DNA of 50,853 bases from Escherichia phage BEBK14: sequence record MN158214.1; one strand, given 5' to 3'. The position numbers and the translations under genes were made by a program. This document shows, one piece after another, positions 41,771 through 43,430 of the stretch (its first letter is position 1; every line of letters starts with the position of its first letter). Under the pieces are notes generated by a model, which saw nothing but the letters and a program-made list of their open reading frames with translations, made no database searches and had not been told where the DNA came from.

Positions 41771-41838
41771 GGTGCTTTCTCCTGATTGGTTTAACAAAAT
41801 TATTTCTGGTTATAGGCCGGATTTTACGGCCTGGATTA

Positions 41839-42021
41839 TTACTTAATTCTTACCTCAACATTAATATCTGCGTTGGGGGCGAATAGCTGCGCCTTGCCGT
41901 TAACGCGAATGGTGAGAATGTTCTCTTTGCGGCAGTTATCCAGCACCAGGCGATATTTGCCAGCAAACTTAACCATCATTCCCGGTTTGACTTCGCTCAT
42001 TTTGATGATTTTATCCATCAT
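41839..42021 (-). CDS. hypothetical protein
   Basis: 60-aa ORF after ~200-nt GC-rich leader. Confidence 0.35.
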   Translation of the reverse strand: MMDKIIKMSEVKPGMMVKFAGKYRLVLDNCRKENILTIRVNGKAQLFAPNADINVEVRIK

Positions 42022-42240
42022 TAACCCCTTTCACATAAATAACCGTTTAATCTTTGGTGACGGGCTTCACTTCGTCGGTAGCCTCAGTTCAGTGACCTAT
42101 CTAGCGTTCTGCCTGGTGGCGAGTGTGATAGTTCTGGCCTCACGGTTGGGAATCCTGACACTTCGATCAAGCCCCTGCGTCGCTCCTCTCCCGCAGCAAT
42201 CCTTGCCGCCCGTCTATGTGTGTATTATGCCTGGTTATCG
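42022..42240 (-). ncRNA. GC-rich ~200-nt untranslated leader / candidate structured RNA
   Basis: lies between -10-like CATAAT (42224..42229) and gene 41839..42021; no ATG-initiated ORF; GC-rich with multiple inverted repeats. Confidence 0.3.
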
Positions 42241-42250
42241 TTTTTGAGTT

Positions 42251-42267
42251 TTAACAAAAAGTGCTAT
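42251..42267 (-). promoter_or_regulatory. 17-bp box copy
   Basis: contains TAG stop of lipoprotein gene; CATAAT 42224..42229, 21 bp downstream; followed by long GC-rich leader. Confidence 0.5.
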
Positions 42268-42527
42268 TTCACGTTTGTTGTGTTCTGGTAGTGACTAACC
42301 GACTTACCTTCGTTAGTTGACCAGTTTGCGCTACCCTGGCAGTTGGTAAAGTACACGTATCGGCTATCGCTGAACCTGTACACATCGCAACCATCAACTG
42401 TAAATAGTTTTCTGACGTTGTAAGTATCGGCAGGGTTAGCCATTTGTGCATCGACGTAAGCACCATCACCATTGCATCCGGTCAGGAATGCTGTTGCCAT
42501 AAAAACCGCCATTAATGCCTTATTCAT
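42264..42527 (-). CDS. lipoprotein
   Basis: signal peptide + lipobox LTGC; GAGGAG RBS; stop TAG inside box copy. Confidence 0.45.
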   Translation of the reverse strand: MNKALMAVFMATAFLTGCNGDGAYVDAQMANPADTYNVRKLFTVDGCDVYRFSDSRYVYFTNCQGSANWSTNEGKSVSHYQNTTNVK

Positions 42528-43021: not shown

Positions 43022-43430
43022 ATTATAAGTGCTATTTTATGCGTGTCAATGTTTATTTTGTCCGTATAACGTTCGCGTCCTGTTCGCGTTGCCGAAGTTT
43101 TGAGAGAATCACTACATAACCACATGATTTGCAATAAGTTTTTACCGCTTGTTTTCTTTCTGTTCGCGCTGTTAGCGCAATATCGCAATAAAAGTATATA
43201 TACATACTCATTCCACCAGGCGCGCAACTATCCATATATATACCAACAAAGCGACACCGCAACCATCACATACCACACTAACAACGCTAACAAGAAATAA
43301 CACATAAATATATACATAAATAAATATTCTTTATTTTCAATGTATTATAAGGGATTTATTTTGTTTTTTGCGTTCGCAATACATTGAAAAACAGCGCGGA
43401 AACATGTCGCCCTGAAACGCGAACACGCAC
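43022..43430. other. AT-rich divergent control region B with GTTCGCG repeats (possible origin/operator region)
   Basis: GTTCGCG at 43071, 43082, 43162; CGCGAAC at 43418; ATACATAAATAAATATTCTTTATTTT block; no convincing ORF over ~720 bp. Confidence 0.55.

Follow-up and report, generated by a model that had tools for sequence, protein, structure and literature searches.

On the minus strand of Escherichia phage BEBK14 (MN158214.1; the whole stretch of 50,853 nt analyzed here is referred to as the window), about 200 nt separate a -10 hexamer from the first open reading frame (ORF). The question raised by this locus is what such a leader might contribute to the transcript that begins with it. The original prediction, made from the letters of the window, described a GC-rich untranslated leader and offered as possible readings a structured 5' UTR, a small RNA, or a processing or attenuation element. 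From the analyses described below we conclude, with very little reservation, that the leader contains a member of a new family of approximately 156-nt structured, cis-located leader RNAs, which forms the very 5' end of an early phage transcript synthesized by the host RNA polymerase (RNAP). The family comprises about 170 phages; it is larger than was first supposed and is not a local peculiarity.

Promoter, leader and first ORF in the BEBK14 window

The window belongs to a T1-like (Drexlerviridae) coliphage and shares approximately 97% identity with MatMar and WaterSpirit across the leader region. The pairing of CATAAT with an upstream box, on which the original prediction was built, is confirmed. 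All 14 copies of the box in the window have a -10-like hexamer 18 nt downstream. A structured leader follows only one of these 14 identical promoters, while the other 13 are followed by ordinary leaders of 20–35 nt. The features of the locus are:

42248..42267, minus strand: promoter box ATAGCACTTTTTGTTAAAAC (read from 42267 to 42248), with 14 matches in the window versus 0.94 expected by chance
42224..42229, minus strand: -10 hexamer CATAAT, paired with the box ATAGCACTTTTTGTTAAAAC
about 42217, minus strand: predicted transcription start (A), placed from promoter geometry at the usual distance of 6–7 nt from the -10 hexamer
42053..42219, minus strand: covariance-model match, approximately 135.5 bits (E value 7e-35), the sole copy in the window, where the next match has 12 bits
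42059..42214, minus strand: RNA element of 156 nt, built of nine short helices that form two stacked three-way junctions, with approximately 65 invariant nt
42022..42058, minus strand: spacer and Shine-Dalgarno sequence (SD) AAGGGG (42025..42030), unstructured, G-poor and A/U-rich; CA-rich in most other lineages
41839..42021, minus strand: first downstream ORF, 60 aa, phrog_8121, of unknown function; cargo of the leader in the lineage of the window only

The GC content was correctly said to exceed that of the surroundings: it is 57.5% for 42053..42219 versus 45.7% for the whole window, which corresponds to the 99.5th percentile of 167-nt windows. The base composition of the same stretch includes 31% G and 26% C, G thus not being markedly above C. 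The spacer is 100% identical to that of swan01, and both its length and its composition match the ordinary leaders of BEBK14. The leader was also correctly described as devoid of ATG-initiated ORFs. The sole ORF on its sense strand is a 28-aa ORF with a TTG start (42084..42170), which is not conserved; no reading frame, sense or antisense, is open across all types of the family, and the length differences among members include non-multiples of three. Several database records nevertheless annotate hypothetical proteins over the element, or extend a methyltransferase CDS into it, and at minimum the present results call for a correction of these annotations.

Single-sequence folding does not distinguish the leader, since the MFE z-scores of +0.74 (sense) and -0.03 (antisense) are both insignificant. 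The case for more than chance therefore rests on conservation and covariation across relatives.

Distribution, covariation and anatomy of the RNA

A sensitive BLAST search was performed with a 241-nt region against 50,697 phage records. The first 62 nt, which cover the promoter and the beginning of the leader, are shared by many T1-like phages, and the remainder recurs in quite different phages. With the K-type query the element was found in 171 phage records, almost always as one copy per genome. The carriers include nearly every Dhillonvirus (among them HK578, Gluttony, and SECphi18), a minority of the T1-like Drexlerviridae, Sortsnevirus (sortkaff and IME279), and KA2-1/Arya-like and BUCT618-like phages (Klebsiella phage KA2-1, Enterobacter phage Arya, and BUCT618); PHB17 is another named carrier. 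Copies of the HK578 type are present in 134 of the 157 Dhillonvirus-like genomes at a coverage of at least 80%. Within Dhillonvirus the element has 95–99% identity versus 90–95% for the terminase gene, and the elements of the window and of swan01 are identical at 167 of 167 positions versus 64–92% identity for the flanking ORFs. The element is thus under stronger constraint than its neighboring genes. It has spread horizontally among virulent siphophages of the Enterobacteriaceae and is confined to phages of these hosts.

No BLAST match was obtained in 5,426 complete E. coli genomes or in the plasmids of PLSDB. A strict, exact pattern scan of 185,579 species genomes returned a single contig, a mis-binned phage. 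IMG/VR and a metagenome collection contained close relatives only, and looser patterns in IMG/VR yielded mostly chance coding matches or the same approximately 24 contigs, the covariance model finding no match in the extra loci. Because neither the IMG/VR pattern scans nor the covariance model produced new members, the family appears to be narrow at these sensitivities.

MAFFT and RNAalifold performed poorly on unrefined alignments and all-versus-all covariation was swamped by lineage structure; a hand-made structural alignment was therefore employed. It started from 18 distinct members, segmented by hand with N as padding, and gave 93.6% paired cells, two-sided changes in 28 of 48 pairs, and a covariation score of 0.50, as against scores of 0.02–0.07 and 29–44% paired cells for register-slid controls. 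Applied to the fetched loci, the covariance model built from this alignment recovered 43 copies, 37 of them distinct, and returned the same match in the window as before. Model-based realignment of the 37 distinct sequences gave 93.7% paired cells and compensatory change in 28 of 49 pairs, as against 30–40% paired cells for register-shifted controls, values that belong to alignments fitted to the structure and representing only about 10 sequence types. On the model-made alignment, RNAalifold independently finds P1, P2, P3, P4, P5, P7, and P8, and adds a 2-bp helix bridging both junction strands. Independent compensatory changes also occur inside Dhillonvirus, where an A-U pair of P7 is replaced by U-A and by C-G and where P1 has variants. 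Folding and covariation across related phages had been proposed as a check, absence of conserved structure in homologues being the outcome that would have spoken against the element; the structure is conserved across the family. The components of the RNA, in the order in which they are transcribed, are:

42208..42214, minus strand: P1 5' strand GACGGGC, closing the whole element and starting about 3 nt from the predicted 5' end
42195..42207, minus strand: P2 hairpin GGCAA-GGA-UUGCU, with an invariant GGA loop, a covarying stem, and a CsrA-site-like CA(A)GGAU
42193..42194 with 42069..42070, minus strand: 2-bp helix GC/GU (columns 29-159: 16 A-U, 16 G-C, 3 G-U, and 1 U-A)
within 42187..42194, minus strand: purine-rich 5' side of the internal loop, G and then the invariant GGAGA, after the GC of the 2-bp helix
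42182..42186, minus strand: P3 5' strand GGAGC, forming a long-range helix with 42077..42082
42142..42180, minus strand: arm 1, a single long hairpin arm made of P4a (ACG/CGU), P4b (GGGG/UCCC), and P5 (CUUGAU-CGAAGU-GUCAGG)
42086..42139, minus strand: arm 2, made of P6 (GG, CAG / CUG, CU), P7, and P8
within 42086..42139, minus strand: P7 (CUAUC/GAUAG and an A-U pair) and P8 (CU(C)GCC-ACCA-GGCAG)
42066..42085, minus strand: GAG, P3 3' strand GCU(A)CC with a bulged A, invariant GACGAA, GU, and GAA
42059..42065, minus strand: P1 3' strand GCCCGUC, with covariation in all seven P1 pairs

The inverted repeats quoted in the original prediction are real: GGCGAGTGTGATAG is the plus-strand image of P7/P8, and CAGGATTCCCAACCGTGAGGCC covers P5/P4. 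The stem of P2 covaries, as illustrated by AGCUAUA/UAUAGCU in the member L066. The internal loop that follows is 6x6, purine-rich and invariant, with N-GGAGA opposite GACGAA. P3, which encloses both arms, includes an R-Y pair that is A-U in 19 members and G-C in 18, with zero exceptions. In arm 2, two-sided changes affect four of the six pairs of P6, six of the seven pairs of P7, and three of the five pairs of P8; between P7 and P8 lies the invariant internal loop CA/AACGC, and in most members a GNRA-type loop closes P8. The invariant core consists of the GGA loop, the GGAGA/GACGAA purine loop, the CGWAGU loop, AACCGUGA, and the CA/AACGC loop. Among the unpaired columns, the search for tertiary pairs returned lineage-confounded candidates only.

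The strand on which the molecule is folded follows from arm 1. Three pairs of P5 covary and the G.U pairs of the P4a/P4b/P5 arm are invariant. Since these pairs would be C.A mismatches on the opposite strand, the folded molecule is the gene-sense RNA. Among the readings offered at the outset, a structured 5' UTR is accordingly the one that holds, the leader being a covariation-supported multi-helix RNA of the gene-sense strand that separates the promoter from the first ORF. A classical attenuator is not supported, as the leader has neither a terminator/anti-terminator pair nor a conserved alternative structure that would sequester the SD.

Genomic context and candidate functions

In all lineages, which represent about 10 sequence types, the element starts 1–5 nt past the predicted start of a sigma70-type promoter, and its end lies 24–44 nt from the SD and first start codon, the spacer in between being poor in G and rich in CA. 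The downstream ORFs are unrelated between lineages and are all of unknown function; no partner protein is shared among them, and even members of one lineage may have different first ORFs. The element is thus a portable "promoter + leader" module which is not attached to any particular gene. Most T1-like relatives have the same promoter and the same downstream genes and lack the element. At the same spot they have a 7-bp hairpin, GGGCGGC-ACGGC-GUCGCCC, which is the P1 of the K-type element minus its interior. In T1-like phages the core is therefore accessory and can be lost, while the 5' stem is kept.

The transcription units behind the element vary. In HK578 it heads the sole long early operon that runs leftward (genes 44 to 26; 19 genes, approximately 12 kb), and all three annotated promoters of the genome lie within the divergent region that holds it. 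Judging from their size and position, the large ORFs gp38 (763 aa) and gp33 of this operon would be replication genes. Directly behind the first gene is a strong intrinsic terminator, GGCCCGC..GCGGGCC followed by U5 (-17 kcal/mol); the Dhillonvirus terminator reads GGCCCGCUAAUCUGCGGGCC-U5. No promoter is predicted over the 1.9 kb past the HK578 terminator. In KA2-1, the element heads a co-directional block of 21 genes and 10 kb. The unit of BUCT618 measures only 1.4 kb and is bounded by terminator-promoter pairs, ending at a terminator with a promoter directly after it. In the window the unit is also short, the same promoter recurring 1.4, 2.6, and 5.4 kb downstream of the element; no intrinsic terminator was found there within 4 kb downstream, and none was seen downstream of the element in sortkaff. 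A layout in which the element lies downstream of an early promoter and ahead of terminators in a long operon is present in Dhillonvirus, compatible with KA2-1, and not evident in the window, sortkaff, or BUCT618.

The near letter-for-letter sharing of the element by about 170 otherwise unrelated phages indicates that it probably engages a conserved host machine. Similarly, the fold, the 5' placement, the independence of the gene behind, the horizontal spread, and the constraint point to a partner that the hosts have conserved and that is independent of the gene downstream. By analogy with the put RNA of phage HK022, our best guess, which we put forward tentatively and would not call probable, is that the element is both a 5'-end clamp and a put-like modifier of the host RNAP. 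The nascent RNA would fold on emergence into two stacked three-way junctions. In P1, nt from about +2 to +10 would be paired to the element's 3' end, with 1–5 nt left unpaired at the 5' end, and this clamp would protect against 5'-end-dependent decay of the transcript by RppH and RNase E. The invariant core would then dock on a conserved enterobacterial machine, for which the candidate is, as with HK022 put, the elongating RNAP that just made the RNA. A polymerase docked in this manner would be resistant to pausing and to termination, whether intrinsic or Rho-dependent, throughout the operon that follows.

The basis for the clamp is the established relation between 5' stem-loops and 5'-end-dependent mRNA decay, and this layer of the model is supported by the retention of a P1-type hairpin in the core-less T1-like relatives. 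The architecture of the Dhillonvirus operon, with the HK578 terminator at the head of a long unit, favors the docking on RNAP. In contrast, the short units of the window lineage and of BUCT618 argue against it. Furthermore, the core is dispensable in most T1-like phages, which an optional booster or an anti-host function would fit no less well; the element has double the size of put and shares no homology with it; and so elaborate a core is found more typically in riboswitches and ribozymes than in the antiterminator RNAs that are known.

Several other functions might be assigned to the same molecule. The leader might recruit an abundant host RNA-binding protein, with CsrA as the candidate, for stability or translation. 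CsrA bound to the GGA loop and the single-stranded GGAGA would block RNase E or assist ribosome loading, which would boost whichever ORF follows and tie early expression to host physiology; a parallel is found in the flhDC leader, which CsrA protects. The sequence of P2, CAGGAUG or CAAGGAU in most types, would correspond to the CsrB repeat and SELEX-like core. The invariance of this GGA and of the unpaired GGAGA, the location at the extreme 5' end together with the P1-only hairpin kept in core-less relatives, the modular and, in T1-like phages, accessory nature of the element, and the resemblance of its spacer to ordinary BEBK14 leaders are all consistent with such a platform. However, one GGA hairpin needs neither six more conserved helices nor about 50 more invariant nt, and the second CAGGAU takes part in base pairing and has disappeared from L066; judged from these sequence motifs, a role of this kind is unlikely, if worth bearing in mind. 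We consider a phage-specific riboswitch, in which a ligand would stabilize P1 and set either the accessibility of the 5' end, and with it the half-life, or the loading of Rho on the C-rich spacer, to be rather improbable. The 5' UTR location and the aptamer-like architecture (a closing P1, multi-way junctions, invariant junction nt, and covarying stems) would suit it, and an output based on the 5' end would explain the strict distance of 1–5 nt from the predicted start; on inspection, however, P1 is not followed by a U-tract, and the lineages show no consistent pairing of its 3' strand with the SD, the downstream genes have no common function, and no Rfam riboswitch matches at E≤10. A trans-acting RNA would arise if cleavage in the A/U- and CA-rich spacer freed a stable RNA of approximately 160 nt with ends protected by P1, which could, early on, sequester a host factor or an anti-phage defense protein as a decoy or sponge. 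Nucleotide conservation exceeding that of adjacent genes, movement between unrelated phages, accessory status in T1-like phages, early expression, absence from host chromosomes and plasmids, and proximity to small early genes of unknown function would agree with such a product, to which we nevertheless give little credence: in none of the approximately 10 lineages does the element have its own terminator or lie away from an ORF start, the distance to SD/ATG always being 24–44 nt, and it has no long rRNA complementarity above that of shuffled sequences.

The remaining readings are weaker. Phages are rich in small ribozymes, and a large self-cleaving or otherwise catalytic RNA, by which the operon transcript would be processed at its 5' end, would fit the size of the element, its two three-way junctions, and the many invariant nt of its junctions and internal loops. 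We regard this as very improbable, as no Rfam ribozyme matches, no recognizable catalytic core is seen, and cleavage at either end would break up the P1 clamp kept by relatives. A replication transcript, i.e., a primer or an origin-activating RNA, is suggested by the Dhillonvirus element, which occupies a divergent promoter region adjoining a primase/helicase gene, and by the helicase genes beside the element in KA2-1 and PHB17. In BUCT618, sortkaff, and the window, by contrast, the element does not adjoin replication genes, T1-like relatives manage without it, and G shows no marked excess over C; there is scarcely any likelihood that replication accounts for the family. Finally, the 28-aa TTG ORF could be a small protein-coding gene with a non-ATG start, or the whole similarity could be functionless and due to chance. 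Both possibilities are practically negligible and are refuted by covariation and broken frames: no frame is open family-wide on either strand, the indels are not multiples of three, the substitutions in the helices are compensatory, and conservation across unrelated genomes excludes chance.

The phages of E. coli belong to the most thoroughly studied viruses, and large, ornate and highly conserved RNAs that lack an Rfam family are uncommon in them. Whatever the element binds must be conserved across the Enterobacteriaceae, be it RNAP, the ribosome or a decay factor, a metabolite, or a defense protein, and must matter enough that the RNA stays more constant than the terminase gene. It is quite conceivable, though we stop short of expecting it, that the family is either a second class of self-sufficient RNAP-reprogramming RNA, structurally unlike put and disseminated among virulent coliphages, many K-12-infecting laboratory isolates included, as a portable "promoter + antiterminator" cassette, or the first phage-only class of riboswitch; in the riboswitch version, a host-state or immune signal may be read via control of 5'-end accessibility. 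A put-like antiterminator would make a general strategy of what is now a curiosity of one phage and would offer synthetic biology a compact part that needs no protein, and a riboswitch or decoy would add a new layer to phage-host sensing. Many of the approximately 170 element phages were isolated on laboratory strains of E. coli K-12, which opens every hypothesis to direct testing.

Comparison with known RNA classes

A covariance search against Rfam, which had also been suggested, was negative: Rfam 15 (4227 models) gave no match in the whole window at the gathering threshold, and no match in 41800..42400 at a permissive E≤10. On seven other members it returned nothing but a chance miRNA match elsewhere. 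No tRNA cloverleaf had been recognized at the outset, in agreement with ARAGORN, which finds neither tRNA nor tmRNA. No hairpin abuts the P1 3' strand, and a tRNA-like 3' NCCA after P1 was rejected as it is not conserved (ACCA, ACCU, UAAA, or CAAC, depending on the type). As both the Rfam and the tRNA checks are negative, the family is a new one and not a known one. The conserved 14–17-mers occur in no paper found in the literature search, nothing relevant was retrieved for Dhillonvirus, Drexlerviridae, or put-like RNAs, and the element is absent from a microbiome RNA-motif supplement. With rRNA, no long complementarity beyond that of shuffled sequences was detected; two 11-nt same-sense identities with 23S rRNA are marginal when compared with shuffles.

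The CsrA-binding RNAs CsrB, CsrC, and RsmZ, as well as the flhDC leader, resemble the element in its CAGGAUG/CAAGGAU, in the GGA of a 5'-proximal hairpin loop, and in the single-stranded GGAGA. The total number of GGA per element is 3–7, mostly in stems, with one invariant GGA loop and one single-stranded GGAGA. CsrB carries approximately 18–22 CsrA sites, whereas the element has one or two plausible sites and, unlike the CsrB/CsrC/RsmZ group, is fused to mRNA and has no terminator of its own; the few GGA loops, the missing terminator, and the junction with mRNA do not fit an sRNA of the CsrA-sponge type. Moreover, in comparison with both these sRNAs and flhDC, the greater part of the conserved structure of the element is unrelated to the GGA motifs. 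With riboswitch aptamers the element shares the 5' UTR position, a closing P1, multi-way junctions, invariant junction nt, and covarying stems, but it differs in lacking an Rfam match, a visible expression platform, and functionally coherent downstream genes, and in being restricted to phages. The SD is located about 10–30 nt past the P1 3' strand, and inspection for an expression platform revealed no U-tract after P1 and no partner for the SD conserved across lineages, which would leave room for an output based on Rho or on decay.

The 5' stabilizers of the ompA type found in E. coli mRNAs are simple hairpins without sequence conservation. P1 of the element is comparable, as it begins 1–5 nt from the predicted 5' end and as core-less relatives keep the 7-bp hairpin, although the stem of the element encloses 140 nt of highly conserved structure. 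Like lambda nut and the rrn leaders, the element is a leader RNA signal near the head of early operons; unlike them, it contains neither boxA (GCUCUUUA) nor a boxB-like hairpin with an N-type partner. Look-alikes of ops and boxA were rejected on inspection, and the CA-rich "UUAAC" stretches after P1 resemble the ordinary leaders of BEBK14.

Any likeness in operation to put, to an ompA-type stabilizer, or to a riboswitch would be a functional analogy only. The closest functional parallel that we propose is put, which acts in cis via the zinc-binding domain of the RNAP beta' subunit and suppresses pausing and termination without protein factors. In HK022, the put RNA is approximately 70 nt long and forms two stem-loops in a V shape; putL is found shortly downstream of an early promoter, put exerts its effect on terminators 10 kb or more away, and the RNA docks on the transcribing RNAP, which becomes resistant to pausing and termination (PMC9378689). 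The element, with 156 nt, nine helices and two three-way junctions, is a different molecule, and it is present once per genome in virulent phages, whereas put occurs twice per genome in a temperate lambdoid phage. With filters off, the element model R1 attains at best 5.6 bits in the HK022 immunity region (27.5–30.2 kb), and membership in the put family is ruled out by size, by fold, and by this score. The likeness is one of situation: both are cis-located, promoter-proximal, structured nascent RNAs in an early operon of an E. coli siphophage, and the element is indifferent to the identity of the downstream gene and, in Dhillonvirus, is placed ahead of a terminator and a long operon.

Promoters in the window

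The sequence ATAGCACTTTTTGTTAAAAC is a conserved promoter box found at 14 sites in the window.

Sites of the ATAGCACTTTTTGTTAAAAC promoter box in the window
2023, 3062, 5579, 36835, 39607, 40785 and 42248, minus strand
12885, 23912, 27661, 43648, 44732, 46656 and 49500, plus strand

The box is followed 18 nt downstream by a (C/T)ATAAT-like -10, beyond which lies a CA-rich leader of short length. With TTGTTA as the -35, the two hexamers are separated by 22 nt, and the geometry is therefore not that of a canonical sigma70 promoter. The box may be an UP-like element or the binding site of a phage factor. A perfect sigma70 consensus promoter (TTGACA-16-TATAAT, 12/12) is located at 43022..43049 on the minus strand. 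It lies upstream of the ORFs preceding the 156-nt structured leader RNA (the element) and, among the early promoters of this region, is probably the strongest.

Promoter and element region in related phages

In the fetched locus of tonnikala, a T1-like relative, a promoter of the window type is followed at positions 1548-1566 by the 7-bp hairpin GGGCGGC-ACGGC-GUCGCCC and nothing more. This hairpin is identical to P1, the closing stem, of the K-type element. The same arrangement is present in vB_EcoS-95 and about 150 T1-like records, whose BLAST matches are confined to query positions 1-62, i.e., the promoter and the start of the leader. The hairpin in the tonnikala-like phages looks like a deletion remnant in which the 5' stem has been kept.

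Among the phage database matches, 19 records named 'Campylobacter phage A14b/A136/...' carry the T1-like promoter region (~90% identical). These sequences probably come from coliphages and were deposited with an incorrect host name. The DNA methyltransferase CDS annotated in PHB17 (1843-2601 of the fetched locus) runs across the promoter and 5' half of the element, and its stop is the UGA within the invariant CCGUGA; the C-terminus of the protein is probably fused or over-extended. 'Hypothetical proteins' are annotated over the element in several further records.

In the Dhillonvirus HK578 (~2336-2432 of the fetched locus), and likewise in WFI, a second promoter (TTGAAA-17-AATAAT with TG) lies immediately upstream of that of the element. 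The predicted transcript, ~60 nt in length, ends in a clean terminator (GCGCCG...CGGCGC + U9), and this unit is a candidate small RNA or insulator.

An intergenic spacer and similarity to 23S rRNA

A GC-rich hairpin without a U-tract on the sense strand (AGGCCG-UAAAAU-CCGGCCU) occupies window 41813..41833, between the 321-aa ORF and ORF60, the 60-aa ORF downstream of the element. swan01 lacks this hairpin and shows a gap of 53 nt at that spot; the hairpin belongs to an indel-prone intergenic spacer.

The element itself shares two same-sense 11-nt identities with E. coli 23S rRNA.

Identities between the element and E. coli 23S rRNA
42161..42171, CUUGAUCGAAG, 23S rRNA position 1881
42137..42147, AACCGUGAGGC, 23S rRNA position 2886, at the 3' end

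Their significance is marginal, as shuffled sequences give ~4.5 matches of at least 9 nt; mimicry of rRNA by the element is a possibility.
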